A stretch of DNA of 48,124 bases from Candidatus Woesearchaeota archaeon (GTDB lineage Archaea; Nanobdellota; Nanobdellia; Woesearchaeales; UBA583), in NCBI GenBank assembly GCA_041631255.1, contig JBFKKL010000001.1, positions 1-48,124 of the forward strand. The letters run 5' to 3'. The notes beneath the pieces are model-generated. The model worked only from the letters and a program-made list of their open reading frames with translations, had not been told where the DNA came from and did not search any database. This document shows positions 3,249 to 48,124 of this stretch, piece after piece (positions within the stretch are counted from its first letter, which is position 1; each line of letters opens with the position of its first letter). The position numbers and the translations under genes are program-made.

Positions 3249-3938
3249 ATGAACAGAAAAGAGTTTGCAAAAATATTGGCAAGACAATTCAGAAAAGAAG
3301 GTTTTGACAATCCAACAGATTACAAAGAGATTCTTAGGAACTTAAGAACTGAGTTGCCTGAAGTGAAAGGCAAGAAAAGAAATAAGAAATTACCTGAGTT
3401 TTTAACTATTGAAGAGGCACGAACATTCATCAATACTGCTCACATGATAGCAACCAAAGATGAGAAGAAAGGAATAATTGCCGAGACATTCATCAAAACA
3501 GGTATGAGAAATTCTGAGTTATGTAAATTAAGAATCGAGAACATTGATTTCGAGAAAGGGATATTCAAGATAGTTGAAGGGAAAGGAAGGAAAGATAGAT
3601 TCGGTCTAATGTCTCAAGATATTCTAAGGTCAATAATTAGAATCACCAAAGGTAGAAAGACAGGTTATGTGTTCTTGAATAAGTACGGTGATAGATATTC
3701 TGAAAGGTCAATGCAATATATAATCAAAGAAATCAAGGAGAAAGCAGGGATAATTAAAGACATTCATCCACACAGTTTACGTCATTCATTTGCAACTATA
3801 CTTGCAGAGGCAGGAGTTGATATTAGAAAGATTCAGAAACTACTTGGGCATGACGACATTAGAACTACAACAATTTATGAACATATGGCAATAGGTCACG
3901 AGAAAGAAGAGATATTGAAAATAACAGGTGGAATTTAA
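3249..3938 (+). CDS. Tyrosine recombinase / integrase (XerC/D-like, short form)
   Basis: Catalytic signature: GMRNSEL (Arg), HPHSLRHSFAT (H-x-x-R), LLGHDDIRTTTIYEH (His...Tyr). Confidence 0.9.
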   Translation: MNRKEFAKILARQFRKEGFDNPTDYKEILRNLRTELPEVKGKKRNKKLPEFLTIEEARTFINTAHMIATKDEKKGIIAETFIKTGMRNSELCKLRIENIDFEKGIFKIVEGKGRKDRFGLMSQDILRSIIRITKGRKTGYVFLNKYGDRYSERSMQYIIKEIKEKAGIIKDIHPHSLRHSFATILAEAGVDIRKIQKLLGHDDIRTTTIYEHMAIGHEKEEILKITGGI

Positions 3939-6484: not shown

Positions 6485-6501
6485 TTTTTATTTTTACCAA
6501 A

Positions 6502-6575
6502 TAACGAGTAAAGGATTTGAACCTTTGACTTTCGGAGCATGAATCCGAATCTCTACCTAACTGAGTTAACTCGTT
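6502..6575 (-). tRNA. tRNA with anticodon CAU (Met, or Ile2 if C34 is modified); no encoded CCA
   Basis: Cloverleaf folded by hand. Acceptor AACGAGT/ACTCGTT, D arm ACTC-AGTTAGGTA-GAGA, anticodon stem TCGGA/TCCGA with loop TTCATGC, variable loop AAGTC, T arm AAAGG-TTCAAAT-CCTTT, discriminator A. Confidence 0.85.
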
Positions 6576-6590
6576 ACAAAAAAAGTGGAA

Positions 6591-15738: not shown

Positions 15739-15975
15739 TTATCTCCTCTTAGTTGCAACAGCAGTTTCTGTTGTAAATTTTTTCATATATATGGCAATAC
15801 CTGTAATTACAGCACCTGCCAAAGTAATCCATAAAGGATTCAAATTATAATATTTGGAAACTTCCAACAATCCAAAACCAAAAAGAATCGTACCTGACGC
15901 ACTTATCAAAAGCCAACCCCAAGTTTGAAACCAAGTTTGTTTTTTACCACTTCTTTTTCTATATCTATTAGCCAT
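15739..15975 (-). CDS. Small two-TM protein, first gene of the envelope operon (candidate major hydrophobic structural protein)
   Basis: 78 aa, basic N-terminus followed by two hydrophobic helices. The leaderless ATG lies about 28 nt from the TATA at 16000-16007. Confidence 0.55.
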   Translation of the reverse strand: MANRYRKRSGKKQTWFQTWGWLLISASGTILFGFGLLEVSKYYNLNPLWITLAGAVITGIAIYMKKFTTETAVATKRR

Positions 15976-15997
15976 ATGACATAAATTTCAATTTAGT

Positions 15998-16010
15998 GCT
16001 TTATAAACAA
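15998..16010 (-). promoter_or_regulatory. Divergent promoter, TTTATAAAGCAC read on the minus strand
   Basis: Palindromic TATA TTTATAAA at 16000-16007. It has the same TTTATAAAGCA core as 16214-16224. Confidence 0.65.
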
Positions 16011-16026
16011 ATTTTGGAAATAGTTA

Positions 16027-16213
16027 GGTTTCAATTTTGAAAACCTAAAAAATCACCTTTTCAAATCTGAAAATGTAAAAATCCAATGTTTCAATTTTGA
16101 AAATCCAAAAAAAGCACTTTTCAGTTTTGAAAAGTGAAAAAACTCAGGTTTCAGTTTTGAAAACCTAAAAAATCACCTTTTCAAATCTGAAAATGTAAAA
16201 ATCCAATGTTTAC
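16027..16213. repeat. Array of six TTTCA-N4-TGAAA inverted repeats at an exact 30-bp period (a 120-bp higher-order duplication)
   Basis: Half-site TTTCA at 16029, 16059, 16089, 16119, 16149 and 16179. 16027-16091 differs from 16147-16211 at 1 position in 65. Unit 4 has perfect 9-bp arms, CACTTTTCA/TGAAAAGTG. Confidence 0.9.
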
Positions 16214-16224
16214 TTTATAAAGCA
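16212..16224 (+). promoter_or_regulatory. Divergent promoter, TTTATAAAGCAT on the plus strand
   Basis: TATA at 16214-16221, which predicts a TSS near 16245 and a leader of about 180 nt before the ATG at 16425. Confidence 0.6.
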
Positions 16225-16244
16225 TAGAAATGAGAATTACTTAC

Positions 16245-16424
16245 CCATATTGTAGTGGGGGCGTTATTGTGCAGGAGTAAGAGTCGGCTCTCATCATTGC
16301 GAATGAGGTAATGACCGCACCTTTTCCATAAATTGAAAAAGGAGTCTCTGCCCGTACGGTACTCAGTCCTTTACAATTAAGATTGACAATATGAGTACTC
16401 AATTAAAAACATTTTTGAATAAAA
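16245..16424 (+). ncRNA. Candidate structured 5' leader or ncRNA (locally GC-rich non-coding segment)
   Basis: No ORF. GC is clearly above the surrounding sequence. Local stems include CTCAT-N8-ATGAG. Palindromes CCGTACGG and GAGTACTC. Confidence 0.35.
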
Positions 16425-17489
16425 ATGGCGAAAAAAAACAAATCAAACGGAATGTCAGGAGGAATGTTACTTTCAGTAGTAGTAGTTTCCGCCTTAGTAG
16501 TTCTAGCAATTCTAGGACTTACAGGACAATTCCAATCAGTAGGTACTACTGAAGAACAAAAAGCAGTTGTTGAACAACAGTTAGCAAGTATTTCTTGTCC
16601 TGACGATAAAACAACAACAGTGACATTGAATGTTCAAAATCCTCTTAACACAACAGGAGCAGAATCATTTGATGCCGAAGTTACTTTCTTAGGTGACAAC
16701 GGAGAGAAAACAACAGGTACAGATTCTACAGACGGTTCTTACAACTTAAATTGTGGTACAGTTTACGAATTAATTGTTGAATCAGCAGACGGTGCTTCAG
16801 GAGATAATGCGTTCATTAAATCAGTTCTTGAAGGAAACGGAGCAGAAGTAACAGAAGAAGGTACAATTGTTTTCGCACCAAGTCAAGCAACTTATAGACT
16901 TACAGCAAGTGTTTCACAACACGCAACTATTGAGACTAAAGTTTATGACAGAGAAGATGCAAGATTTGCATACGACTCAGGTGACGCATCAAACTCAGAA
17001 TATGAAGGAGACGCTACAACTTTCAGAGATGGAGACAATGCAACAGCGTTCGCTCTAACTAATGATGGTGACTACCTTGACTTAGAACTGAGTTTAAGAA
17101 GTGTTCAAACAGATACAGAATTTGGTGACGGAGGTTTCTTCATCGCAGTTGAAGCACCTGTAACTGAATACGATGAACCAACAGTTTCATTCAACGGAGT
17201 TACTCTAGAAGAAATTAAAGGTTCAGGTCTAAATGAATACGAATCAAAACAACTATCCAATTATGAATACGTTTACTTTGTTGACGAGAGCATCGTTAGA
17301 AAAGCCAAGACTCTTGGATTCTACATCGAAGCAAACTCAGATGCTAGTACTGACGTAGAAATTGATTTAGTTGCAATCGGTAAAGTTGACAGTATTGATG
17401 GAGTTAACATTATTACATCAAGTGCTCAAGACAACTCAGCAAGTACAACTGTTTACTCAGTAATGGACTTCACTGTAGATGTAAGTTAG
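16425..17489 (+). CDS. Abundant-looking acidic structural protein with an N-terminal TM anchor (candidate major virion/envelope protein)
   Basis: MAKKNKSNG..LLSVVVVSALVVLAILGL anchor. Codon usage is visibly biased (GGT/GAA/GAC/ACT/GTT). It has its own promoter and its own hairpin plus T-tract terminator. Confidence 0.6.
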   Translation: MAKKNKSNGMSGGMLLSVVVVSALVVLAILGLTGQFQSVGTTEEQKAVVEQQLASISCPDDKTTTVTLNVQNPLNTTGAESFDAEVTFLGDNGEKTTGTDSTDGSYNLNCGTVYELIVESADGASGDNAFIKSVLEGNGAEVTEEGTIVFAPSQATYRLTASVSQHATIETKVYDREDARFAYDSGDASNSEYEGDATTFRDGDNATAFALTNDGDYLDLELSLRSVQTDTEFGDGGFFIAVEAPVTEYDEPTVSFNGVTLEEIKGSGLNEYESKQLSNYEYVYFVDESIVRKAKTLGFYIEANSDASTDVEIDLVAIGKVDSIDGVNIITSSAQDNSASTTVYSVMDFTVDVS

Positions 17490-20605: not shown

Positions 20606-23600
20606 ATGAAAAAAGTACTAATACTAACAATATTAACTCTCTTCTTACCAAGTTTAGTTTTTAGTGCGTTCAATGGAGACGATGATGGATTCCACAGTAA
20701 TGCAGTTGTAACTGAAGGTTCAACAGTTTGCGATTTCGATTTCGAAGATTACAATAACGCAGGAGACGATGCAAATTACGGTTCATTCGATGACCCTGAC
20801 GATACGGGCACAGTTAGAACTCCTTTACAATTTTGGGTATCAAGGACATCAACAATTACTGTAACCTCAACATGTGAATATACAATTTATGAAACGGAGA
20901 CTTGTTCAGGAGCAACAATTCACACAGGTTCAAATACAGGAGGAACAGGAACTTACACAGTTAATATCGCACCAAGCAATTTTGCAGGACATCAAGGTGA
21001 ATTATGTTTATGCGTTAAAGCAATCAATGACCCAGCACTTGGAGACCCAACGGAGAACGAAGAATGCGGTCAAATCGGAATTGCACCTTACATAACTTCA
21101 TTAAATGTAACTGAAAGTACAGTAAATTTATTCCAAAATCAAACTTTAAATTATTCAATTGATGACACGAACGATATTGAAAGACTAGATTGGAAGATAC
21201 TTAGAGTATCAGATAACTCAACAATTAAATCAACATTAAGAGACACAAATCTTTCAGGATTAGTTCAAGAACAACAAATTAATTTTTCAACTAATCCGAT
21301 TTTAGATACAACCCATAAATATTCTGCATTAGGTTGGAGAGATGATAGTGAGAACCATACAAGATTTTCAACAAACTCAGTTAATTTATCAAACGAGTAC
21401 AATATTACAGGCACACTATTTTGTGAAGATTTCACAGACAATTTAGGATTAGGAATTTACAATAAAGGTGAACAGTTGAATTTATCGGGAACAATTGACG
21501 ATTGGAATCAAACAGACTATACAGTAACAACGGGCGTTGGTTACCAAATACAGTACAGAGTAGCAAGTCAAGAAACGAACGAGTTCACATCAACTACAAC
21601 AGACGTAAATTCAACAGGAGGTTGGAACAGAGTTACAACCATTTCAGATTCAGCAGAAGCCACAAACACTTTCACAGGAACTTCTTATGATATAACATTT
21701 CAAATTGACGCAGACGTAGATTCAACAGAGAACATGACTTGTACTTATTCAGGAGTAACTGACATCTCTTCCTTAATTCAATTATCTACAACTCCAAGCG
21801 TACCCACTGCCGATAACAAATATTCAACTAATTATTCAATCTATAATTACGGTGAGACAGCAAATATTTGGGGATACTTATTCAACGTAAGAAATGAGAC
21901 ATATTCTAATCAAGCGAATATGACACTTTTAGTTTTAAATTCCACAAACGCAACTGAAGAGACAGTAAACATTTCAACTAACGGTTCAGGTTATTTCGAG
22001 ACCTCTTATAACATAGTTTCTCCTGACACGTCAACGAACGATAAAACAGGTAGTCCAAAACATATCCAAATAACACCTAATAACGGGAACTCAGAAATCA
22101 ATTCATCAAGTAATCATAGCGTATCATCTTTAATAGAATTGGATTCAAACACTTGTTCAGCATCCAACAACAATTTATTCAATACAACATACAATATTTA
22201 CAATTATGGAGAGACAGTAAACTTTTGGGGATATTTATGTAATGTAAGGGGCGAACCGTACAGTTCAGAATCTAGTTTGAACGTATTAGTTTTAAATTCC
22301 ACAAACGCAACAGAAGAGAACATAACTTTTTCAACTGACTCAAACGGTTTCTTCAATGAAACTTACAACACAACATCACCTGATACAGCAACAAATGATT
22401 TCATAGGAAGTCCAAAACATTTAAGGATAACTCCTAACGATGACAATTCACAATTCGATTCAGCAAACGGGCATTCACTATCAACTTTAATCCAATTATC
22501 TACGAACACCTGTTCAGCATCCAACAATAATTTATATTCAACTAATTATTCAATTTACAATTACGGTGAGACAGTAAACATTGAAGGATATTTATGTAAT
22601 GTAAGAAATGAAAGTTACGCAAGTCAATCAGGTATGACATTAAAAGTATTAAGTAACACAAACACAACAGAAGAGACAAAAACGATTTCAACTAACGGTT
22701 CAGGTTATTTTGAAACAACATATACTCCCGCATCGCCCGATTTAGCAACAACAGATTATGTTGGTAGTCCAAAACATATCCAAGTAACTCCTAATGATAA
22801 TAATGGAATTTTAAATTCATCAAGTAATCACAGCATATCAACTTTAATTAGTATCTCAGATAAAGCATGTAATGTAGAAATCAATAATAAATTCAATACA
22901 ACATACAATATTTACAATTACGGAGAGACAGTAAACTTTTGGGGATATTTATGTAATGTAAGAAATGAAAGTTACGCAAGTCAATCCTCTTTAACATTCA
23001 AAGTTCATGCAGACAATGAGAGTGTAGAAGAAACAATCTCAACAGCAAGTACTGACTCAAACGGTTTCTTCAATGAATCTTATGTACCTGATTCAACAGA
23101 TAAAGCAACAAATGATTTCATAGGAAGTCCAAAACATTTAGAGATTACATCCAATGACGATAACAGTATATTCGAAAGTGATTCTTCATTTAATTTAAGT
23201 TCATTACTTAACGCAACAATATGGATTTCCAAATCATCAAGCACCCAAACAATTCCAACAGATGAGATTGCAACACAATTCATTATTGCAGGAGATTCAG
23301 TTTATGCGTGGGTAAAAACTTTAGGAGTTAGAGGAGACAACATTTCATCAGTTACAGTCGATACAAAAACAGTTAGAGGTGCAACAACAGAAGAAACTAA
23401 TAATGGCTTAATAACTAAAGCGAACGCATGGACAAATAGAACTTCGTTCAATCCTGTTGTTCCTGCGGGTCAAAGAGATTTAGTTGCAAACGGAACTGAC
23501 AGTTCAAGTAATTTCTTTTCAGTAAATGAGACAATAGAATATATCCCTGCTTATACAGCAAATAGAATAAGTGTACCATTCATAAGAAAGATTTCAGGTG

Positions 23601-26311
23601 ACGGGATAGGCAACAACTTTGTTTCAGGTTCAGTTCTAAGAATCTACGTTGACTATTTTGTTGATGCACAATTACAAGACACTTTAAACAACCAATCAAC
23701 AGTTACGATTCGTAACTCAACTAATGACATCATGTTAAATGCAACCAACATGACAAGACATTCTTTAGGTAAATATTATTACGATTGGGATACAACGGGC
23801 AAGAACCCTGACTCATACCATTTCTTACTTTTCGGTAAGAACTTAGATACAGTAGATTCTTATTCAAGTGCTTTTGTAATTATAACAAACGAAACTGCAA
23901 TCACATCTTTACCTGTAACCAATAATAATGTTTCAACATCTTCTCCATATGTAAGAAAGATTTCAGGCGATGGTATTGGTAACAATTTCAAGAACGGCTC
24001 AATATTAAGAATTTATTCAGATTTCGCAGTGAATGGAACATTAACAAACACTTCTGAAACTCCTACTATAACATTAAAGAACTCAACAGATAATATAGTT
24101 TTAAATTCTCTTAACATGACATATTTATCAACAGGTAAATATTATTACGATTGGAACACAACAGGAATAAATCAAGACACTTATCACGCCATAACTCAAG
24201 GTAATGTAGGTAACAAGAACACTTACGGAAATGTTTGGTTTGTTGTAACTAATGAAACTCCAACAACTGAATCAATAAACAACAATATAACAACAATAAA
24301 TCCTTACATTAAGAAACTTTCAGGCGATGGCATAGGTAATAACTTCAAGAACGGTTCAGTTCTAAGAATTTACGGAGATTATTTAGTTAATGAGACTTTG
24401 ACTGAACCTTTGAGTAATCTCTCTAAATTGACGATTAGAGATTCAACAAACAATATAATCTTAAATGAAGTTAACATGACAAGAGATAATCAAGGAATTT
24501 ATTATTATGATTGGAATACTCAGAACGAGACTCAAGATACATATTACTTATTAATTGATGGAACAGTTGGGGGTAAAAGAACATTTGGAAGTTCTTGGTT
24601 TATTATAACAAACGAGACAGCAGTAACATCAATCCCTCAAGAAGATGAAAGAACAATCACACCTTACGTTAAAAAACAATCAGGACAAGGTATTGGAAAT
24701 AATTTCGTTAACGGTTCAAGTTTAAGATTATATTCAGATTTCCTATTAAACGGTCAATTAACAAACACATCTGATACACCAACAGTTACAATTCGTAACT
24801 CAACTAACGATATAATCCTGAATGCAACTAATATGACTTTCCATTCAACAGGTAAATATTATTACGATTGGGATACAACAAATGTGAGCCCTGATTCCTA
24901 TTTAGTTATTTATGAAGGAGATTTAAATTCCAATACAACTTATTCGAGTGCATGGTTCATTATAACAAACGAGACAGCAGTAACATCAATCCCTACAACA
25001 AACACTACAACAGTTTCACCTTACATTAAGAAAATATCAGGTGCAGGTATTGACAATAATTTCAAGAACGGTTCAGTTCTAAGACTTTACACAGACTATT
25101 TTGTTAACGGAGCATTAACTGACCCGACAAACAATCAATCAACAGTTACAATTCGTAACTCAACAAACAGCATCATAGTTAACAGTGCTAATATGACAAG
25201 ACATTCAACAGGTAAATATTATTACGATTGGAACACGTCAGGGATTGACCCTGACTCATATTTAGCAATTTATCAAAGTACACTTAGCGGTAACTTAACT
25301 TACGGAAGCACTTGGTTCGTACTAACAAATGAGTCATTAGATAGTTTTTCTGAGAGAATCGCATTAGCAACAGAGATTGGTGCAGGTGCAAAAGTAAAAA
25401 ACAATTTAAACAATTCAGAATATTTCAATAACGAGAACGTAATCACTAAAAGAATAAGTGAAACAGCGTTAATGAAATTCAATATCACTTTCTTAAAAGT
25501 TCCTGATAATGGCGATGATTATAAAGTTAGATATGAGTTTTACGCTAGAAACGGTTCAGGAGAGATTGTTGAATCGATTGAAACAACAGTTCAAGGAACG
25601 ACAGGTAACAAGGACATATATTTTGGGAGCAACAATTTATCTCCTAACGGATTACAGGAAACTTATTTAGTTAAAACAATAGTTAGTATGCAAAACGAGA
25701 ATGGATTATATTTAGAATTTAATGAAACAATTATTGGTTCAATCACAGTTGATAGTTCAAATAGTGTAACGGAAGGAGACACAGTAGGTAGGGCAGGACT
25801 CTACGATGTAATAGTTGAAGTTGATAGACATAAATACGAACCTTCAGACATAGTTAAGGCAGAAATAGTCATCTTCAATACAGGAGACATACCTGATGAG
25901 GACACAGTCTTAATTTATTGGTTAGAAAAGAATGGTGAAAGATATGGAGAAGTGAAAGAACAGTTCTTAGAAATTCCTGTAGGTAAAACTTTCCTTAATA
26001 AAGCAATCGCCTTACCTTCCGATTCAGAACTTGGTGAATGGCGTTTCGTTGCAGAATATTATACAGTTGTTCAACCTAAAATCAAGGTTTACGATTCATT
26101 TGAAGTTGTAGAAGATGTCGCTTTACTTGACGATTTCCAAGAAGAATTAAAGAATTTAGTTTTAATACCTGCAACATTTATTACTGATTCAATTCCCGAA
26201 TTTGTTAAATCACAAAGATTAGTTAGTAGAGATTTTGTTTATGTATGCATTGGAATCTTATTTAGTATCTGCTTATTCATATTCTTCGTGAAAAGGAGGA
26301 AGAGAAAGTAA
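20606..26311 (+). CDS. Giant tandem-repeat surface adhesin-like glycoprotein (1901 aa), C-terminal TM plus KRRKRK
   Basis: Signal peptide. Four A-type and five B-type repeats of about 119 aa. Extremely sequon-rich. C-terminal FVYVCIGILFSICLFIFFVKRRKRK. Confidence 0.8.
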   Translation: MKKVLILTILTLFLPSLVFSAFNGDDDGFHSNAVVTEGSTVCDFDFEDYNNAGDDANYGSFDDPDDTGTVRTPLQFWVSRTSTITVTSTCEYTIYETETCSGATIHTGSNTGGTGTYTVNIAPSNFAGHQGELCLCVKAINDPALGDPTENEECGQIGIAPYITSLNVTESTVNLFQNQTLNYSIDDTNDIERLDWKILRVSDNSTIKSTLRDTNLSGLVQEQQINFSTNPILDTTHKYSALGWRDDSENHTRFSTNSVNLSNEYNITGTLFCEDFTDNLGLGIYNKGEQLNLSGTIDDWNQTDYTVTTGVGYQIQYRVASQETNEFTSTTTDVNSTGGWNRVTTISDSAEATNTFTGTSYDITFQIDADVDSTENMTCTYSGVTDISSLIQLSTTPSVPTADNKYSTNYSIYNYGETANIWGYLFNVRNETYSNQANMTLLVLNSTNATEETVNISTNGSGYFETSYNIVSPDTSTNDKTGSPKHIQITPNNGNSEINSSSNHSVSSLIELDSNTCSASNNNLFNTTYNIYNYGETVNFWGYLCNVRGEPYSSESSLNVLVLNSTNATEENITFSTDSNGFFNETYNTTSPDTATNDFIGSPKHLRITPNDDNSQFDSANGHSLSTLIQLSTNTCSASNNNLYSTNYSIYNYGETVNIEGYLCNVRNESYASQSGMTLKVLSNTNTTEETKTISTNGSGYFETTYTPASPDLATTDYVGSPKHIQVTPNDNNGILNSSSNHSISTLISISDKACNVEINNKFNTTYNIYNYGETVNFWGYLCNVRNESYASQSSLTFKVHADNESVEETISTASTDSNGFFNESYVPDSTDKATNDFIGSPKHLEITSNDDNSIFESDSSFNLSSLLNATIWISKSSSTQTIPTDEIATQFIIAGDSVYAWVKTLGVRGDNISSVTVDTKTVRGATTEETNNGLITKANAWTNRTSFNPVVPAGQRDLVANGTDSSSNFFSVNETIEYIPAYTANRISVPFIRKISGDGIGNNFVSGSVLRIYVDYFVDAQLQDTLNNQSTVTIRNSTNDIMLNATNMTRHSLGKYYYDWDTTGKNPDSYHFLLFGKNLDTVDSYSSAFVIITNETAITSLPVTNNNVSTSSPYVRKISGDGIGNNFKNGSILRIYSDFAVNGTLTNTSETPTITLKNSTDNIVLNSLNMTYLSTGKYYYDWNTTGINQDTYHAITQGNVGNKNTYGNVWFVVTNETPTTESINNNITTINPYIKKLSGDGIGNNFKNGSVLRIYGDYLVNETLTEPLSNLSKLTIRDSTNNIILNEVNMTRDNQGIYYYDWNTQNETQDTYYLLIDGTVGGKRTFGSSWFIITNETAVTSIPQEDERTITPYVKKQSGQGIGNNFVNGSSLRLYSDFLLNGQLTNTSDTPTVTIRNSTNDIILNATNMTFHSTGKYYYDWDTTNVSPDSYLVIYEGDLNSNTTYSSAWFIITNETAVTSIPTTNTTTVSPYIKKISGAGIDNNFKNGSVLRLYTDYFVNGALTDPTNNQSTVTIRNSTNSIIVNSANMTRHSTGKYYYDWNTSGIDPDSYLAIYQSTLSGNLTYGSTWFVLTNESLDSFSERIALATEIGAGAKVKNNLNNSEYFNNENVITKRISETALMKFNITFLKVPDNGDDYKVRYEFYARNGSGEIVESIETTVQGTTGNKDIYFGSNNLSPNGLQETYLVKTIVSMQNENGLYLEFNETIIGSITVDSSNSVTEGDTVGRAGLYDVIVEVDRHKYEPSDIVKAEIVIFNTGDIPDEDTVLIYWLEKNGERYGEVKEQFLEIPVGKTFLNKAIALPSDSELGEWRFVAEYYTVVQPKIKVYDSFEVVEDVALLDDFQEELKNLVLIPATFITDSIPEFVKSQRLVSRDFVYVCIGILFSICLFIFFVKRRKRK
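21770..23210 (+). repeat. Intragenic repeat family A (4 x about 357 nt, ABAB pattern with a 714-nt higher-order period)
   Basis: IYNYGETVN.WGYLCNVR...GSPKH recurs. Copies 1/3 and 2/4 share long near-identical nucleotide runs at an offset of 714 nt. Confidence 0.85.
23565..25345 (+). repeat. Intragenic repeat family B (5 x about 357 nt)
   Basis: PY(I/V)KK.SG.GIGNNF.NGS.LR.Y...GKYYYDW.T...ITNETAVTSIP recurs. AACGAGACAGCAGTAACATCAATCCCT occurs at 24611 and 24968. Confidence 0.85.
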
Positions 26312-30530: not shown

Positions 30531-30903
30531 AATCATCAAAGGGTTCTTGGGCAGGAAAATCATGGTAAGCCACATCAAGACTAGAGTAATTCTAGGCGAG
30601 ATTCAAGGCGTGGAAGATGGTTGTTATCTATTAAAAACCTTATCGGGAATCCAAAAGATATTCAGGTTAGCAGTTGTAGGGGTACAGAATTTCCCTGACA
30701 GTGAAGTTTCAAGATTAGTTGTTAGAATGCCAAGTTTATCGACAGGAATAATTGAAGATTGCGATGAATTAAGCATTTTACTTAAGATTGGAGATAACCG
30801 AAACGAAGGCAAACATTACAATACTGTAATCACATTGAACTCAATTGAAGGTTACAAAGTTTTAGATTACGATGAAGATTTAGAAGGAGACAGTGAAATA
30901 TGA
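30517..30903 (+). CDS. Hypothetical protein (128 aa), possibly an Sm-like beta-barrel
   Basis: FLGRKIMVSHIKTRVILGEIQGVEDGCYLL is a weak Sm-like pattern. Confidence 0.4.
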   Translation: MAKNKIIKGFLGRKIMVSHIKTRVILGEIQGVEDGCYLLKTLSGIQKIFRLAVVGVQNFPDSEVSRLVVRMPSLSTGIIEDCDELSILLKIGDNRNEGKHYNTVITLNSIEGYKVLDYDEDLEGDSEI

Positions 30904-31751: not shown

Positions 31752-31951
31752 AACCAACAGAAAGAGAATTTGAGAGATTAGAAGATTTACTTGATAGAAG
31801 TAGGATAGTAAAAACTCAATCTTCAATTGATGAACTTAACAATTACAAATCTTATTTAATGTTAAAGTATGAGATGAGCACCGAACAAGATTTACTTCTG
31901 AATTGGTGGGAAAGACAATTAGAGATATTACAATACGAAAATAAAAGATGA
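31748..31951 (+). CDS. Small hypothetical protein
   Basis: ATGA overlaps on both sides. Confidence 0.55.
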   Translation: MKPTEREFERLEDLLDRSRIVKTQSSIDELNNYKSYLMLKYEMSTEQDLLLNWWERQLEILQYENKR

Positions 31952-33333
31952 AAAAAGATAAAGTTATTGCTCAGATATATTCAACAAGTGACATTTATAA
32001 TCTTAAAGTGAAGATTCTTTCAGACAAAGTAAACAATTTCGATTTTCTAAGAATCAAACATAAGAAGTATGGATATGTTTTAGCACAGATAATGAACATA
32101 CAAAGAAACACTCAAAACGAGATGATTGGGTTTTGTAAAATAATCGGTTACAGAAAAGATTCTAAACTTCTTTCAATTAGACAACCTTTTGAAACTAACG
32201 CAGAAATTGAACTAGCAAATGACGAGTTCATCGAACACACATTAGGTTTTAACAGAGTGGAAGGTGCAATGATAGGACATTTATCGTTCAAAGATAAACT
32301 AAAAATCAACTTACCTCTAAAAGATTTGTTAACAAAACATATTTCTATTCTTGCTAAATCGGGGTCAGGTAAATCTTATACAGTGGGCGTTCTTTTAGAA
32401 GAGATAATCAAACATAACATACCAATAGTTGTTTTAGACTTACACAATGAATATCATTCATTACGATTCAAGAACCAAGATAAACAACAATTAGAATCAT
32501 TAAAGAAATTCAATTTATCTGCAAAAGGTTTCAATAATGAAGTTAAGATTTGGAGTCCAAGACCTGAACAAGATTACGAGAATCAATTACTTTTAAGTAT
32601 AGAGAACTTGAACAGCGACAGATTATTCGATTCATTGATTAATCCATTAAGTCATTCATCTAAATCTCTAATACATAATGTTTTGTCGGGCATGAACAAT
32701 CAAATTAACATAGATGAATTGATATTCCATCTCTCAAATGAAGAGACAAACACTAAATGGACAATCATCTCAGCGTTAGAGGAATTAAAGAAAACTAGAA
32801 TCTTTTCCAATAAAGGAACTCCATTAAATGAGATTGTAAAACATAGACAGGCATCGATAATTAATTTGAAAGGAATACCTCACTCAATTACAGAAACATT
32901 CGTTATGAACCTTCTAACAGATTTATTTCAAGCAAGAAAGAAAGAAGAGATACCTCCATTTTTACTTGTTGTAGAAGAAAGTCACAATTTTTGCTCTGAA
33001 CTAAATTTAGGTAAAAAGAAAACAAATGACATTATCACAACTATTGCAAGTGAAGGGAGAAAGTTCGGTTTAGGTTTATGTGTTATCTCTCAAAGAGCAA
33101 GTAAGGTCAATAAGAACGTCTTGAGTCAATGCAATACACAAATTATTATGAATATAGTAAATGAACGTGACATTAAGGCAGTAATAAATTCCTCTGAAGG
33201 ATTAGACACAGACACAGGAAATGAAATACAAAGATTGGAAGTAGGTTCATGTATTCTAGCAGGATTAATGTCAACACCATTAAAGATTAAAGTTAGACCT
33301 AGACAATCTAGGCATGGAGGAGACGTACAATGA
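31948..33333 (+). CDS. HerA-like (FtsK/HerA superfamily, DUF87-type) ATPase
   Basis: Walker A LAKSGSGKSYTVG, followed by IPIVVLDLHNEYH. Walker B FLLVVEESHNF. ISQRAS sensor-like motif. N-terminal barrel-like region. Confidence 0.75.
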   Translation: MKKDKVIAQIYSTSDIYNLKVKILSDKVNNFDFLRIKHKKYGYVLAQIMNIQRNTQNEMIGFCKIIGYRKDSKLLSIRQPFETNAEIELANDEFIEHTLGFNRVEGAMIGHLSFKDKLKINLPLKDLLTKHISILAKSGSGKSYTVGVLLEEIIKHNIPIVVLDLHNEYHSLRFKNQDKQQLESLKKFNLSAKGFNNEVKIWSPRPEQDYENQLLLSIENLNSDRLFDSLINPLSHSSKSLIHNVLSGMNNQINIDELIFHLSNEETNTKWTIISALEELKKTRIFSNKGTPLNEIVKHRQASIINLKGIPHSITETFVMNLLTDLFQARKKEEIPPFLLVVEESHNFCSELNLGKKKTNDIITTIASEGRKFGLGLCVISQRASKVNKNVLSQCNTQIIMNIVNERDIKAVINSSEGLDTDTGNEIQRLEVGSCILAGLMSTPLKIKVRPRQSRHGGDVQ

Positions 33334-33736: not shown

Positions 33737-33800
33737 ACAAACCCTAAAACGATAGGTTTATAAATGAACAAACCCTAAGACAAGTAAGGTTAAACAAACC
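33737..33800 (+). promoter_or_regulatory. Promoter with three ACAAACCC(T/C)A elements flanking the TATA GTTTATAAATG
   Basis: GAACAAACCCTAAAAC, TATA at 33757-33766, GAACAAACCCTAAG, TAAACAAACCCCATAAATG. Confidence 0.55.
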
Positions 33801-33813
33801 CCATAAATGAACA

Positions 33814-36054: not shown

Positions 36055-36315
36055 ATGAAACCAACAATAGAATTAGTCACATATTCGGAATCAAGTCCGA
36101 GAATTAAGAAAGTTAATAGAGATGAAAAGATTTATTCAATAAGACAATCAGAAGAAATGAAATTCTTTTCAGCAATGGTCGGAGCAACTATCATGTCAGG
36201 ATTCATTGTTCTTTACAAATATGTTTTTGGTAGAGGTTTCGATACAACAGCATTTGTGTTCACAATAGTTCTAATTACAGGACTTGCAATATTTTGGACA
36301 ACACTTAGAGATTAG
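36055..36315 (+). CDS. Small two-TM protein
   Basis: Hydrophobic segments FFSAMVGATIMSGFIVLY and FVFTIVLITGLAIFW. Confidence 0.55.
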   Translation: MKPTIELVTYSESSPRIKKVNRDEKIYSIRQSEEMKFFSAMVGATIMSGFIVLYKYVFGRGFDTTAFVFTIVLITGLAIFWTTLRD

Positions 36316-36319
36316 AAAA

Positions 36320-36559
36320 ATGAGTAAAATTAAATTAGGACACAAGCAAAAGAAGTTATTACAAAAACTATACGAAGAAGAGATATTAACAGTAAAAGAT
36401 TTCATGGACATTTATGGGATAAATTCAGAACAGGCATTTGTTAAAATAAAGTCTTTTGAAAAAATGGGGTGGATTGAGAGAAAGGGTAGAGGTTCAACAT
36501 TAGTATTTTTAGAGGGAAAGAATTTTATAGATTGTGTAGGAGAATTAGAATCATTTTAG
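36320..36559 (+). CDS. Winged-helix (MarR/TrmB-like) putative transcription regulator
   Basis: LLQKLYEEEILTVKDFMDIYGINSEQAFVKIKSFEKMGWIERKG. The ATG at 36320 follows the upstream TAG. Confidence 0.5.
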   Translation: MSKIKLGHKQKKLLQKLYEEEILTVKDFMDIYGINSEQAFVKIKSFEKMGWIERKGRGSTLVFLEGKNFIDCVGELESF

Positions 36560-36847: not shown

Positions 36848-36996
36848 TCTAACCTCACAATCATTTCATTTGTCCAAGTTATTGCTAAAAGAACAAAGGA
36901 CAGTGGATTACCATAGATAAGTGCATGAAAAACAGAAGTAATTAAAATCACTTTATTCAAACTAATAACCCAATCAGGAATATTTATTTTTCTCAT
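36841..36996 (-). CDS. Small TM protein (51 aa)
   Basis: ATGA-coupled to the HNH gene, below the track cut-off. Replaces the antisense track ORF 36711..36920. Confidence 0.45.
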   Translation of the reverse strand: MRKINIPDWVISLNKVILITSVFHALIYGNPLSFVLLAITWTNEMIVRLEW

Positions 36997-37391
36997 TCTT
37001 CATCCACCATCCCTATATCTTCTTTTCTCTTTTGATTCCACTCTGCAACATCGATTTTTGTCTTCTCGGAGTGGTGTTGACGACACAATGTTTGAAGATT
37101 ATCAAGTTCATCACTACCACCTAAACTAACAGGCTCTATATGGTCTATTTCTAATGAATCTGTTGAACCACATTTCACACATTTATAATTATCTCTTTTC
37201 AAAACTTTACTCCTAATAGCGTTCCAATCAAAAACTTTGCATAGGTGTTTATAGAAATAATCATTACATTTAGGAGAACAAGTTCTAAGATTAGTTCTAA
37301 CAGGATTCTTCATACATGATGGACAAATCCCTTCAGCAATTTTTTTCTCAACCCAATTGGGCATATCTAATCTGAATGTTTCTCTTGCCAT
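36993..37391 (-). CDS. HNH endonuclease with an N-terminal Cys cluster
   Basis: CVKCGSTDSLEIDHIEPVSLGGSDELDNLQTLCRQHHSEKT. Confidence 0.85.
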   Translation of the reverse strand: MARETFRLDMPNWVEKKIAEGICPSCMKNPVRTNLRTCSPKCNDYFYKHLCKVFDWNAIRSKVLKRDNYKCVKCGSTDSLEIDHIEPVSLGGSDELDNLQTLCRQHHSEKTKIDVAEWNQKRKEDIGMVDEE

Positions 37392-41278: not shown

Positions 41279-41722
41279 ATGGATAACCTATCAAAAAATC
41301 AAGAAACAGTATTGACTTTACGGAAACAAGGATTGACTCAAAAAGAAATAGGTGATGAATTAGGAGTTTCAAAACAAGCCATTTCAAAAACAATGAAAAT
41401 TTTGAGAAGAAAAGCCGTAATACCAAGAAAAGAACTGCACAACTCTTTTAATATTCCTTTGAGAGGCATAAAATTTTTTCACGATGGATATGTAAAGTTT
41501 AATTCGGAGGGAAATGAAATATTTTTACATAGACATATTTGGGAAATAAACAATGGCACCATTCCTGAAGGTTATGTAATTCACCATATCAATTTAAATC
41601 GAAGTGATAACAGATTAAACAATTTAATGTGTTTAACTCATAAACAACATAGAGAGTTACATAAAAAAATTGATAATGGAATTCAAGAAATAACAAAAAA
41701 ATTCATGAAAGAAATACAATAA
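41279..41722 (+). CDS. HTH (sigma-70 region 4/LuxR-like) plus HNH endonuclease fusion
   Basis: LTQKEIGDELGVSKQAISKTMKIL, then HRHIWEINNGTIPEGYVIHHINLNRSDNRLNNLMCLTHKQHRELH. Confidence 0.8.
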   Translation: MDNLSKNQETVLTLRKQGLTQKEIGDELGVSKQAISKTMKILRRKAVIPRKELHNSFNIPLRGIKFFHDGYVKFNSEGNEIFLHRHIWEINNGTIPEGYVIHHINLNRSDNRLNNLMCLTHKQHRELHKKIDNGIQEITKKFMKEIQ

Positions 41723-41723
41723 A

Positions 41724-42710
41724 ATGGTCGAAAAAACATATAAAAAAACAAGAGGTTCCCCTACCCCTACCCTTATGAGGTTGCAAAAGGTTCCTTTTGA
41801 CATAGAAGTCTTAGAAGAATTAAGTGAAATTCAATTAGATATTTTATGTAAATTATGTGTTGATTTCATGTCAAGAAAAGAAATTGCAAAAAGCCGTAAT
41901 GTGTCTCCACAAGCCATAGGAAAAGTAATTAGGAAGTTTAGAAAAGAAGGAATAATAGACAATTTTAATCGCCCAAATACAGACATAAAACCTCAAGGTT
42001 CCCCTACCCCTAAAAAAGGTAGGGGTTCCTCACCTGACAACCCCAAAAATAACAAACTTTTTAGGTTACATGGAGAGAATATGTCAGCAAAAATTCTAAA
42101 GACTTCTCCTAAGTATATGAAACTAATTGAAAAGAAATCACAATTTCCAATTAAAGGAAACAAAGTAATGTTACATAGAAGAAAAGTTGTCATTTATTCA
42201 AGTACTTCTTTTTATGATAAAGACCCGAGGGAGTGTGAGAGAAAAAGTAATGATTATTGGACTAATTTTTATAGGATTTTAGAAAATGAATTAGGTATCA
42301 GAATAATTATGGGTGTAAAAACCGAGATTTATCAATTTAGAAGGCATATTGGAAGAATCAACGACCCTCTTGCAAAAAATGTAATACAAGAAAGATTATA
42401 TTATAGAGTTGTAGATGATTTAGGTCAAGAAAGATTAATTATTGATAACTCAGGTAATATGGCAGAACATGAGGCAACCCATAAAGAATTATGTATTGAT
42501 GATATTGAGAAAATTGCCCAATATGATTTAGACATAATTACAAAAGAACATTTCAAACCTAGTGAGATTTCAGCACTATTTAAAAAACTAACAGAGAATT
42601 TTACTTATTTGCAAGAGTTTGTAGGAATGAGTGAAGGAAGACAAGCAAAAACAGAGGCACATTTGGAAGATACAGTAAGACTATTGAAAGAGGTATTAAA
42701 GAGATTATGA
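41724..42710 (+). CDS. HTH-containing protein with GSPTP repeats (candidate replication or DNA-processing protein)
   Basis: MSRKEIAKSRNVSPQAIGKVIRKFRKEGII is paralogous to the upstream HTH. The rest is unassigned. Confidence 0.5.
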   Translation: MVEKTYKKTRGSPTPTLMRLQKVPFDIEVLEELSEIQLDILCKLCVDFMSRKEIAKSRNVSPQAIGKVIRKFRKEGIIDNFNRPNTDIKPQGSPTPKKGRGSSPDNPKNNKLFRLHGENMSAKILKTSPKYMKLIEKKSQFPIKGNKVMLHRRKVVIYSSTSFYDKDPRECERKSNDYWTNFYRILENELGIRIIMGVKTEIYQFRRHIGRINDPLAKNVIQERLYYRVVDDLGQERLIIDNSGNMAEHEATHKELCIDDIEKIAQYDLDIITKEHFKPSEISALFKKLTENFTYLQEFVGMSEGRQAKTEAHLEDTVRLLKEVLKRL

Positions 42711-44024: not shown

Positions 44025-44216
44025 ATGAAACAAGAAGAAATAAAAAAAATGAAAAAAACATTAAATGACAAAATACAAGAATATGAGAATTGGCTTAACC
44101 ATTTAAAACAAGTAATTAATAGAACAGAAAATGGTATAAGAGTTCTTGAATTAAAAGCACAAGAACAAGTTTTAGAAACAATAGTTAAAGAATTAAAAAA
44201 TCTTTCAAATAATTAA
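44025..44216 (+). CDS. Small coiled-coil protein
   Basis: 63-aa K/E-rich ORF. Confidence 0.45.
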   Translation: MKQEEIKKMKKTLNDKIQEYENWLNHLKQVINRTENGIRVLELKAQEQVLETIVKELKNLSNN

Positions 44217-44280
44217 AATCTGTAACATTATAATATTAAAAAGATAAGTTTATAAATATAAATAATATGATAATATTAAT

Positions 44281-44967
44281 ATGGTAAAAACATATAAAGT
44301 ACAAGTAAATAAAGCAAATGGGCAACCTTTCGTAAATCTTAGTAAGAAAGATGGTTGGAAAGAAGGAGATGAGATAATTCCTCAAATTAAATGGGGTGGA
44401 ATCTATAATAAATCAATGTTAGAGAAGTATTACGAAGAAAATAAAGAAAATCTAACAGAATTAAAGAAAGAACTTGAAGAACTATACAAAGATTACTTTG
44501 AGGGGGAAAAATATAAATTCATAACAGAATCTATGCCTCAAATATTTGGATTAGGAAAAATGATTAATGGGAATGAAGAACCTTATGAATTTGAAAATTC
44601 AGATTTTGGATGGTATCCTATGGATGATATTGATGGAGGGACAATCGGAGATGTTTATTACCAATTAGATAAATATCTCAAATATATTAATGAAAATAAA
44701 TATGATTTGAAAGAAAAACACCCTCAAGAATTAAAAGAATTGGCTTCAATTTCATATATTAAATTATGTTTTGAGAGATTGATTGAACAATTTGAAAGAG
44801 CAAAAGACAAAATACTTGAAAATTACAATTTTGAAGTGTCAAAAGAATCTGGTGATATGTATGATGTTTATAGTAATGGGAAAGTATTTTTGAGGTTCTT
44901 TGAGAAAAGGATTTGTAGTTTAGAAATAGGAGATTTACATCAAGAAAATTTCCTTTCTTTTAATTAA
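44281..44967 (+). CDS. Hypothetical protein with a possible AbrB/SpoVT-like N-terminus
   Basis: VQVNKANGQPFVNLSKKDGWKEGDEII. TATA GTTTATAAATAT lies about 25 nt upstream. Confidence 0.4.
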   Translation: MVKTYKVQVNKANGQPFVNLSKKDGWKEGDEIIPQIKWGGIYNKSMLEKYYEENKENLTELKKELEELYKDYFEGEKYKFITESMPQIFGLGKMINGNEEPYEFENSDFGWYPMDDIDGGTIGDVYYQLDKYLKYINENKYDLKEKHPQELKELASISYIKLCFERLIEQFERAKDKILENYNFEVSKESGDMYDVYSNGKVFLRFFEKRICSLEIGDLHQENFLSFN

Positions 44968-44970
44968 AAA

Positions 44971-45096
44971 ATGGAAACAATAGAAATAATAAATTTTATA
45001 TATTATATAAATCTATATTGGTTTATTACTTATCCTTTAATGATTATATTTTATATATATTTTATTTATTTCATTCCAAAATATTCAAACAATTAA
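44971..45096 (+). CDS. Possible tiny hydrophobic protein (41 aa)
   Basis: ORF in extremely AT-rich sequence, so it could occur by chance. Confidence 0.25.
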   Translation: METIEIINFIYYINLYWFITYPLMIIFYIYFIYFIPKYSNN

Positions 45097-45380: not shown

Positions 45381-45563
45381 ATGAGTGAAGACGAACTAAT
45401 TATTTACGATGAGGAAGGCAAAGAGACCATAAATGTTGACGCTCACGAACGGAAAAAGAGATTAAAAAAAGAATTAAAAGAACTCAAGAAAAAGGAAAAA
45501 GAATCTGTTCCAAAAGAGGTTTTAGATAAATTCAAAAGAGGGAAAGATGATGGTAAAAACTAA
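45381..45563 (+). CDS. Small K/E-rich protein
   Basis: Leaderless geometry behind the promoter. Confidence 0.5.
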   Translation: MSEDELIIYDEEGKETINVDAHERKKRLKKELKELKKKEKESVPKEVLDKFKRGKDDGKN

Positions 45564-45993
45564 TTTGACTCTTCTCTTTGAATTGTGTAATAAAGGTTTT
45601 TTGGAGAAACAACAATTGAAAAGGTATTTCAATAATAAGAACGCCAAGAACTTAAGGAGTTGTCTTGAATCGATGTTTAATTTAAGTTTAGACGAGATAT
45701 TAAAATTAAGAGGATTAGTATTTGAGGCATGGGAATCACCTAAAAAAATATGGAGTGAGAACGAGATTTTAATATTCGGTCAATTATTAAGAATGAATGG
45801 AGTTGCAACAGTTAACGAATTATACAAGAAAAGTAAGATAGATAAAATTGAGAAAGTACGTGACGCAGTTATCGGTTTAGAAGAGAACGAAACTAATCCA
45901 AAGAAGACTGCTCCTGTAATGACAACAAAATCTAATGGCAATTCAAAGATAGTGTTCATATCGCCAAAATTTGTGAGGAAAATGTTAAAATGA
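45547..45993 (+). CDS. Hypothetical protein (148 aa)
   Basis: ORF only. Confidence 0.55.
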   Translation: MMVKTNLTLLFELCNKGFLEKQQLKRYFNNKNAKNLRSCLESMFNLSLDEILKLRGLVFEAWESPKKIWSENEILIFGQLLRMNGVATVNELYKKSKIDKIEKVRDAVIGLEENETNPKKTAPVMTTKSNGNSKIVFISPKFVRKMLK

Positions 45994-47392: not shown

Positions 47393-48124
47393 GTGAAAAG
47401 ATATATTGGATTCTAACAAAAGAAGAAATAAAATCAAATGTGAATTTGAAAAATATATTGTGGATAGTATTAATGTTATTATTAGCATTTTCAACTACTA
47501 ATATAGTGCATGGTTATACGTACTATGAAGAGTTCTCACATAACGAGGCAGGATTCCCTTTAGGAGGGGTAACACAAGAATACCAATTCCCATTCTTAGC
47601 GAATCAAACTCTTTTTTTTGTTCAGGAAGAACGTCAAGACGATAAAGTATTTTTAGATTTTCCAAGCCAATTCACACACACAAATAATACTAACGGTTAC
47701 ATATTCAAAATCAATTATACTTTATTGGATAGAGTGTATTCAGAAAGCACATCTTTCAACGTGTCAGTAAAAGTAACTAATTCCAAGAACAATCAATCAG
47801 CAACAATAGGTATGAAATTTAATATAGAAAAAACTGCACTTGGTGCAATTCAAGTTATAGGAACTGACGAATTAGTTATTGAAAATGGAACATACGTCAA
47901 AAGAATAACTCAAGACAAACTACCCTCCGCAGGTAACTTATCTTTCAATGTGGTAGGTGAACCTAACGAGTTCTTCACATTACAAGGTTGCACATCACTT
48001 CTAAAATGTCCTCTAACTCAATACAAATTCGATGCACAAGGTCATAAGACAATATTCATTGATTATTCATTACCAATCACTCAAGCCTTAGGTAGATACA
48101 CAGAACATTTCAATTTAGTTTCAG
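47389..48124 (+). CDS. 5' part of a junction-spanning gene (469 aa once the overlap is removed): N-terminal signal anchor and sequon-rich ectodomain
   Basis: ATG at 47389 overlaps the upstream TGA (ATGA). The frame stays open to the window end and continues in frame at position 142. MSEKIYWILTKEE..NILWIVLMLLLAFSTTN is a hydrophobic anchor. Confidence 0.8.
   Translation, partial: MSEKIYWILTKEEIKSNVNLKNILWIVLMLLLAFSTTNIVHGYTYYEEFSHNEAGFPLGGVTQEYQFPFLANQTLFFVQEERQDDKVFLDFPSQFTHTNNTNGYIFKINYTLLDRVYSESTSFNVSVKVTNSKNNQSATIGMKFNIEKTALGAIQVIGTDELVIENGTYVKRITQDKLPSAGNLSFNVVGEPNEFFTLQGCTSLLKCPLTQYKFDAQGHKTIFIDYSLPITQALGRYTEHFNLVS
47984..48124. repeat. Terminal direct repeat, copy 2 (identical to 1-141)
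   Basis: Same as copy 1. Most simply explained as an assembly overlap of a circular molecule. Confidence 0.95.

Follow-up and report, generated by a model that had tools for sequence, protein, structure and literature searches.

In this study, we have analysed a 48,124-nt stretch of DNA from a Candidatus Woesearchaeota archaeon (contig JBFKKL010000001.1, hereafter the window), and we describe in it an array of six palindromes, repeated every 30 bp, which lies between two divergent operons and is framed by two mirror-image TATA boxes. The leftward operon encodes small membrane-spanning proteins, and the rightward one begins with the gene of a predicted pilin-like surface protein. The array is a real, non-random cis-element, its sites are confined to this control region, and arrays with other palindromic cores are found upstream of the same gene in related loci. 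The reading that we favour, to which we give a probability of about 55%, is that of a cooperative operator or upstream-activating array, through which a dimeric regulator would act on both structural operons.

Anatomy of the array and its promoters

The array extends from 16021 to 16200, with a GC content of 25%, and is composed of six 30-bp units (U1 to U6), each consisting of a 14-bp palindrome and a 16-nt linker with a central tract of five to seven adenines. As a preliminary description of this region had stated, TTTCA-N4-TGAAA occurs six times at an exact spacing of 30 bp: TTTCANNNNTGAAA starts at 16029, 16059, 16089, 16119, 16149 and 16179, and the palindromes together span 16029–16192. 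In each palindrome, 9 bp separate the centres of the two half-sites. The four central nucleotides read ATTT in U1 (16029–16042) and U3 (16089–16102), AATC in U2 (16059–16072) and in U6 (16179–16192), which is the same as U2, and GTTT in U4 (16119–16132) and U5 (16149–16162), the latter a copy of U1 with one change. The palindromes of U1 and U2 have the extended forms AGGTTTCA...TGAAAACCT and ACCTTTTCA...TGAAAATGT, respectively, and U4 shows perfect 9-nt arms (CACTTTTCA/TGAAAAGTG). The 120-bp duplication noted earlier (within 16027–16211) is also borne out, as the stretches 16027–16091 and 16147–16211 differ at 1 of 65 positions, the sole mismatch being A/G at 16034/16154.

Apart from these recent copies, the units are only 63–77% identical to each other. 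Ten core positions, together with the A that follows TGAAA, are invariant across all units, and the linkers diverge by 25–35%. The five linkers are nevertheless all exactly 16 nt long, in spite of A-tracts of different length (A6, A5, A7, A6 and A6), and this constancy in units of such limited identity suggests selection on the phasing; the array is probably a selected cis-element. All units have their A-tract on the plus strand, which gives the tracts a direction, and a 60-bp super-period arises because the base preceding TTTCA alternates between G and T. In several units the outer flanks of the palindrome are self-complementary, with sequences that differ from one to another (AGG/CCT, CAC/GTG), and the top strand of the array, taken as a single strand, folds better than all of its shuffles (z = −3.4). 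A description of the array as strongly bent DNA was dropped, since its curvature in a wedge model is unremarkable (5th–33rd percentile).

The sites are unique within the window. TTTCANNNNTGAAA occurs there six times, all of them in the array (0.66 expected from shuffling, and none of 100 shuffles reaching six), and when one mismatch is permitted there are 16 matches as compared with 11.8 expected, those outside the array being at chance level. The combination of six perfect sites found nowhere else with near-matches at chance frequency indicates a dedicated site cluster. The shorter core TTCA-N4-TGAA has two further matches, both within coding regions. In a scan with Tandem Repeats Finder (TRF), the array scores 161 and 266 at periods of 30 and 60, respectively, and no other non-coding repeat comes near it. 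The earlier claim that nothing else in the genome resembles the array therefore holds. At both gathering and permissive thresholds, Rfam gives no RNA family in 15900–16500, and in the window only the tRNA at 6502–6575 passes. Several other identities were considered and rejected. The unit size is wrong for a clustered regularly interspaced short palindromic repeat (CRISPR) array, in which repeats of at least 23 nt alternate with unique spacers of about the same length, given the 14-bp core, the 16-nt and mutually related linkers and the 30-bp period, and the Rfam CRISPR-DR2 match is below threshold (18 bits vs 37); a miniature inverted-repeat transposable element does not agree with a single-copy element, nor a phage attachment site (attP) with an integrase gene 12 kb away.

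The array is enclosed by a pair of promoters. The left TATA box (15997–16007, minus strand) reads TGCTTTATAAA on the plus strand, the reverse complement of TTTATAAAGCA, and the right box (16214–16224, plus strand) is TTTATAAAGCA itself, 203 nt upstream of the ATG at 16425. The two boxes, already described as mirror images that share an 11-nt core, are indeed exact mirror images, with starts 214 bp apart. They lie in the 26-nt arms (15982–16007 and 16214–16239; 77% complementary) of an inverted repeat that encloses the array, and the complete module extends from 15982 to 16239. It is two-fold symmetric: the distance from each TATA centre (16003.5 and 16217.5) to the nearest outer dyad centre (16035.5 and 16185.5) is 32 bp, and the whole is thus spaced as 32 − 5x30 − 32 bp.

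Between the left box and the ATG at 15975 there are 24 nt, so that the leftward transcript would be leaderless. In the genome as a whole, seven of the 12 TTTATAAA boxes are found 21–32 nt upstream of the start of an open reading frame (ORF) (P about 5e-9). Such a placement is characteristic of archaeal TATA boxes that drive leaderless mRNAs, and the host is accordingly taken to be archaeal. The left array-flanking box is one of these seven and the right one is the exception; judged from their sequence and position, both are credible archaeal TATA promoters. They appear to form a separate regulatory class. A promoter alignment defines a strong promoter class, AAACACRCNNT-TTTATAAA-TAAAACAAACCCTA, at about 10 operon starts of the element (817, 3206, 4673(−), 26780, 27951, 30008, 33757, 40714(−), 43638 and 45337), with 13 matches to ACAAACCCTA as against 3.2 expected and 12 to the upstream element as against 2.0. 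The array-flanking promoters carry neither the upstream element, proximal to the B recognition element (BRE), nor the downstream one, and instead have in common a downstream GCA, which is what sets them apart. The ACAAACCCTA box, downstream of the TATA box and ahead of the start site, might itself function as an operator or as a promoter-proximal element; three copies are found within 33737–33803.

Arrays in related loci

The recurrence of such arrays was followed in 13 loci (137 kb), on contigs fetched for homologues of the pilin-like gene. The six top TRF arrays of these loci (scores of 73–266, the rest being at most 61) all lie 98–500 bp upstream of the homologous gene, with periods of 30, 30, 31, 19, 20 and 18 bp, that is, about three or two helical turns. 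Besides the window (6 x 30 bp, TTTCA-N4-TGAAA), they comprise three 30-bp units plus an in-phase half-site of TTACTT-N3-AAGTAA in L006, a repeat of about 31 or 62 bp of TTGA-TT-TCAA (TTGATTTCA motifs) in L005, one of about 19 bp of GGTT-T-AACC in L016, 4.8 x 20 bp of TTGTAAA-N2-TTTACAA in L017 and 3.3 x 18 bp of TACTC-N6-GAGTA in L019. Conservation of the array in related contigs, which had been put forward as a check, is thus found as to position, in six of the 13 loci, but not as to the palindromic core. An architecture that is kept while its core sequence changes is the pattern expected of a co-evolving pair of protein and site with drifting specificity. In the case of L005, L006 and L016, synteny with the window extends to either side of the array, and the TATA-array-TATA layout is also present, with TTTATAAA-type boxes 214, 158, 216 and 127 bp apart in the window, L005, L006 and L016, respectively. 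In L017 the upstream gene is co-directional and the array still abuts the TATA box of the pilin-like gene homologue; without a strand switch at this place, the array tracks the promoter and not the switch. L023 has two TATA boxes within a perfect 19-nt inverted repeat.

These arrays bear on whether the repeats have any sequence-specific partner. Tandem duplication and quasi-palindrome correction could have produced them as a by-product in AT-rich intergenic DNA, in which case they would at most keep two strong promoters apart, as a spacer or as a stretch prone to form hairpins or cruciforms; the recent duplication, the single-strand folding and the self-complementary flanks that vary between units would all agree with such an origin. 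So would the fact that a sister contig (L004, a Logan contig from SRR29257411), in which the same element was assembled independently, was broken by the assembler inside the array and starts at about 16182. In short-read assemblies of relatives, arrays of this type may therefore escape notice because the repeats end the contigs. We regard the by-product explanation as quite unlikely, however, as the core is invariant next to diverged linkers whose length is compensated, and as arrays with different cores occupy the same place in six of the 13 loci, where they are the top repeats; this argues for a maintained function. The periods of 18–20 bp in relatives also led us to reject a histone-positioning role for the array.

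It might also be supposed that the array acts as a transcription insulator, each unit presenting on the minus strand a weak hairpin followed by T5–T7, an archaeal termination signal, in order to stop antisense or read-through transcripts that arise at the palindromic right TATA box from entering the leftward operon. U4 does resemble a terminator on that strand, where its hairpin is followed by T7 (16136–16115; a 9-bp stem and then CTTTTTTT), and a sub-threshold Rfam match aligns its hairpin as a terminator stem; the constant direction of the A-tracts points the same way. Yet only one of the six units passes a terminator scan, the arrays of L006, L017 and L019 have no T-tracts, and a terminator would be an asymmetric feature in an otherwise symmetric module, so that this function seems scarcely probable.

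Outside this set of loci, the same palindrome is found as two units 30 bp apart in 39 unrelated genomes, many of them GC-rich, where such pairs stand out. No array of at least three units at 30 bp is present in the genome collection, the 39 matches all being scattered two-unit pairs, and IMG/VR yields three unrelated two-unit matches. In L049 (1237–1293), a metagenome-assembled genome of Nanohaloarchaea (JBDGRE010000011.1), the palindromes GGTTTTCAAATTTGAAAC and GGTTTCAATATTGAAACC, with a spacing of 30 bp, immediately precede the TATA box of a leaderless 96-aa gene, and are very close to those of U1 and U5 (AGGTTTCA-N4-TGAAAACCT). By its sequence, this pair may be the same type of operator in a DPANN archaeon, and the pairing of palindromes at 30 bp looks like a reusable operator design. 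The small proteins whose genes precede the arrays or promoters of L017, L013 and L049 are without a homologue in the window. In L011, the region 900–1810, which covers about 1 kb upstream of the gene and includes the intergenic region, shows an extreme strand asymmetry, being rich in A and C with almost no T.

Possible roles in regulator binding, replication and segregation

Over-represented dyad sites confined to a control region, their whole-turn phasing and the presence of core promoters within reach are the features of an operator array, and all of them are found here. From them we infer protein binding, cooperativity and an effect on transcription. A dimeric protein of the helix-turn-helix (HTH) type, or of the ribbon-helix-helix type, encoded by the element or by its host, would bind each palindrome over 14–18 bp. 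As the 30-bp step is close to three turns of A-tract-rich DNA, up to six dimers could be placed on one face, where their binding would be cooperative and about 180 bp of DNA would be bent or wrapped. The dimers at either end would then stand 32 bp from the TATA centres, just upstream of the contact of TFB with the BRE, and the complex would control the assembly of TBP, TFB and RNA polymerase at both promoters at once, so that the leftward membrane-protein operon and the rightward operon of the pilin-like surface protein would be switched together. As to the sign of this regulation, we favour activation, because both promoters are devoid of the upstream element of the other promoters and so probably depend on assistance; the geometry would agree just as well with repression, in which the complex would extend by one further lattice step onto the TATA boxes. 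The proposal of a cooperative operator array, already made in the preliminary description, is in agreement with the promoters, their separate class, the spacing and the recurring arrays.

A number of observations weigh against this proposal. The scan of about 70 ORFs of the element for a cognate binding protein gave weak winged-helix matches only (36284–36559, 41724–42710 and 45547–45993), none adjoining the array, and there is no second copy of the site at the candidate regulators' own promoters and hence no sign of autoregulation. Only four of the units are independent, so that part of the regularity is inherited from the recent 120-bp duplication. Furthermore, 30 bp corresponds to 2.86 turns of average B-DNA, and binding on the same face needs overwinding by the A-tracts or a superhelical path of the protein. 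The self-complementary flanks, different as they are from unit to unit, suggest a capacity to form hairpins or cruciforms rather than recognition of specific bases, and the single-strand folding described above is to be listed with them. Finally, seven of the 13 loci have no clear array. Among the HTH proteins that had been suggested as regulators, those at 36320 and 41724 correspond to weak winged-helix matches, that at 30900 has no match, and that at 41279 (41279–41722, plus strand) is an HNH endonuclease with an N-terminal HTH fusion (HNH_3, E = 3e-18), which is more likely to be a homing endonuclease than an array-binding regulator. A second HNH endonuclease gene lies at 36993–37391 on the minus strand.

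By analogy, the closest functional counterparts of the array would be the archaeal Lrp/feast-famine regulatory protein (FFRP) control regions, such as the Ss-LrpB autoregulatory region and the FL11 sites. The sites of Lrp-type proteins are clustered imperfect palindromes of 13–17 bp with AT-rich centres, two or three helical turns apart, and are bound cooperatively by dimers that wrap the DNA, about 100 bp being wrapped around three dimers in the case of Ss-LrpB; regulation at the TATA/BRE promoters is either positive or negative (PMC2995911). The Pyrococcus FL11 site reads TGAAA-WWW-TTTCA (PMC2715240). The array resembles these systems in its cluster of short palindromes with AT-rich centres and in a spacing of two or three turns (30 bp, and 18–31 bp in relatives) and contains the same pentamers as FL11, TGAAA and TTTCA, although in the reversed order, TTTCA-N4-TGAAA. 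It differs from them in a centre of 4 nt, with G or C in four of the six units, and in having six sites as compared with two to four. The canonical FFRP box (abcde-WWW-edcba, with an AT-only centre) was accordingly rejected as a description of these 14-bp sites, with their centres ATTT, AATC and GTTT and their reversed order; the boxes of L006 fit the Lrp/FFRP spacing, but their centres are TCC or TGT. No protein of the Lrp/AsnC family (HTH plus RAM domain) was found with Pfam among the roughly 70 ORFs of the element.

In archaeal viruses, regulator sites repeated in or beside promoters are also the targets of F55, SvtR and AvtR, and the array is similar to them in this respect. F55 of SSV1 is a small, virus-encoded dimeric regulator that binds repeated promoter sites in a cooperative and concentration-dependent manner and works as a switch (PMC5569661). 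F55 sites are paired 11-bp direct repeats that overlap the BRE and the transcription start of early promoters, whereas the window has six palindromes upstream of and between two structural-gene promoters, and no ribbon-helix-helix regulator was identified in it. Dyad sites between back-to-back promoters, with cooperative binding and bending, are also known from lambda OR (PR/PRM) and from p4/p6 of phi29 (A2c/A2b and A3), whose divergent promoters are about 200 bp apart. The present region departs from both in having archaeal TBP/TFB promoters rather than sigma-70 ones, in that the genes flanking the array are structural and not regulators themselves, and in its six equally spaced sites, as compared with three or four that are unevenly spaced.

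The same array of phased sites could have a role in replication rather than in transcription. In an iteron-type origin, which had been given as an alternative in the preliminary description, initiator dimers would bind the six repeats and melt the adjacent DNA, and bidirectional forks would be co-oriented with the diverging gene blocks. The lambda O protein binds four palindromic iterons, and phased initiator-binding repeats with A-tracts are typical of lambda-type and plasmid iteron origins, which the array resembles; it is, moreover, present in a single copy in the genome, and the cumulative G-C curve is lowest, over the whole genome, at 16246, where the main strand switch lies. The skew, however, follows the genes. 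Its sense-strand values are positive in each of the five gene blocks (+0.13 to +0.23), and the curve turns only where gene orientation changes (4, 16, 37 and 41 kb), so that it would carry no independent replication signal and the minimum at 16246 can be put down to the coding strand. The array and its flanks are not easily melted (50th–75th percentile of duplex stability), and no AT-rich unwinding region adjoins them, unlike in iteron origins. No identifiable rep gene was found, as sequence searches against Pfam, PHROGs and the PDB gave no Rep, primase, Orc or MCM match, with the reservation that unannotated ORFs could hide one. In L017, the array stands beside the TATA box of the gene where there is no strand switch. 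Taken together, these results make an origin at this place unlikely. The minimum of duplex stability lies elsewhere, at 44182–44281 and 44984–45083, between genes, where the GC content falls to about 10% and small AT repeats occur; these two stretches flank an unannotated ORF of 228 aa (44281–44967) and constitute a better candidate than the array for a DNA-unwinding element or origin.

An array of evenly spaced dimer sites, sometimes overlapping a promoter, is also the design of several plasmid centromeres: sopC of F consists of 12 repeats, each with an inverted repeat, and in parC of R1 iterons flank the promoter. The element is circular and has an integrase, and may persist as an episome, for which an adaptor-bound array could serve as a partition site in the segregation of a low-copy circle. 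Nevertheless, the element yielded neither an NTPase of the ParA, ParM or TubZ type nor an adaptor resembling ParB or ParR, and the arrays in relatives are tied to the promoter of one structural gene and not to a partition operon, in contrast to sopC and parC. We therefore consider a centromere-like function very unlikely. Since most ORFs are unannotated, both the origin and the centromere keep some weight.

The two kinds of function might also coexist. In that case, the 258-bp module would combine several controls, much as the SV40 regulatory region does: a single multimeric protein complex bound to it would start bidirectional replication or ensure episome segregation, and would gate both structural operons as well. 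This possibility, to which we attach little credence, would imply that the specificity of site and protein has been swapped wholesale between lineages of this family of elements of about 48 kb, and that the module is a modular, re-programmable cassette of origin and promoter.

With regard to the favoured reading, a cooperative regulator-binding array, the region would be a familiar kind of control region in an uncharacterised family of archaeal elements, and current concepts are not challenged by it. To our knowledge, only a few models, from Sulfolobales and haloarchaea, have shown how archaeal viruses and plasmids control their transcription, and the lineage of this element has essentially no annotated genes. 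In this context the array is an unusually clean and testable cis-element, with the same core in all six units, exact phasing, a pair of canonical TATA boxes and overall symmetry, and natural variants with swapped specificity are present in its relatives. It could be used as a bait for the first regulator of this element family and for studying how one upstream complex controls two archaeal pre-initiation complexes. From a practical point of view, an array upstream of the pilin-like gene is a marker of the structural module in related contigs.

Flanking genes and the 48-kb element

The leftward operon begins with a gene (15739–15975, minus strand) for a small membrane protein of 78 aa, conserved in L006 and L016; as the genes of this operon encode small membrane-spanning proteins, its earlier designation as an envelope operon is a fair one. 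The first gene of the rightward operon (16425–17489, plus strand) encodes the 354-aa protein, which has 17 homologues in metagenomes and no relative in 185,579 species genomes. Its AlphaFold model (predicted local distance difference test score, 80.6) consists of an N-terminal transmembrane helix followed by tandem Ig-like beta-sandwich domains. In fold comparisons it is closest to the sortase-type major pilins of Gram-positive bacteria (SpaA, BcpA), with a low template modelling (TM) score of about 0.3, and to one unnamed viral protein, A0A5Q2WAX2, with a TM-score of 0.53–0.60. By its predicted fold, then, this is a surface protein of the pilin or adhesin type, and the element may build a surface fibre or adhesin rather than a classical capsid. 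The earlier designation of its gene as the putative major structural one is plausible. The structural genes have no DNA or protein match among 50,697 phage and virus records.

In this genome of otherwise leaderless transcripts, the mRNA of the pilin-like gene has an unusually long and GC-enriched leader. The inferred 5' leader in the window (16245–16424, plus strand) has a GC content of 0.39–0.44 as compared with 0.31 for the genome, and its fold, taken alone, is not significant (z of −1.0 to −1.6). Long leaders, of 130–380 nt, were compared in the window, L005, L006, L010, L011, L012, L016 and L023; those of the relatives are also GC-enriched, with fold z values from +0.9 to −3.7 and a divergence too high for alignment. 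GTACGGTA, at 16354 in the leader, is the only copy in the window; two inverted copies precede the gene in L020, and it is also found upstream of the gene in L023, and GAGTCTCTG is common to the leaders of the window and L005.

The window ends in an exact 141-bp direct repeat (1–141 and 47984–48124), most likely an assembly overlap, which makes the element a complete circular genome of 47,983 bp. It has a GC content of 31%, and nearly all of its ORFs are unannotated. The recognisable genes include a generic Xer-like tyrosine integrase (3249–3938), a GT2 glycosyltransferase and a HerA/DUF87 ATPase (31948–33333), only about 29% identical to DUF87 proteins of haloarchaeal megaplasmids. An AT-rich tRNA-Met (6501–6576, minus strand), with a CAT anticodon and the acceptor stem AACGAGU, is located about 2.6 kb from the integrase gene. 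The element also encodes an MG2-domain protein of 1901 aa (20606–26311), whose ORF contains a 357-bp tandem duplication at 24596–25273 (1.9 copies, 75% identity).

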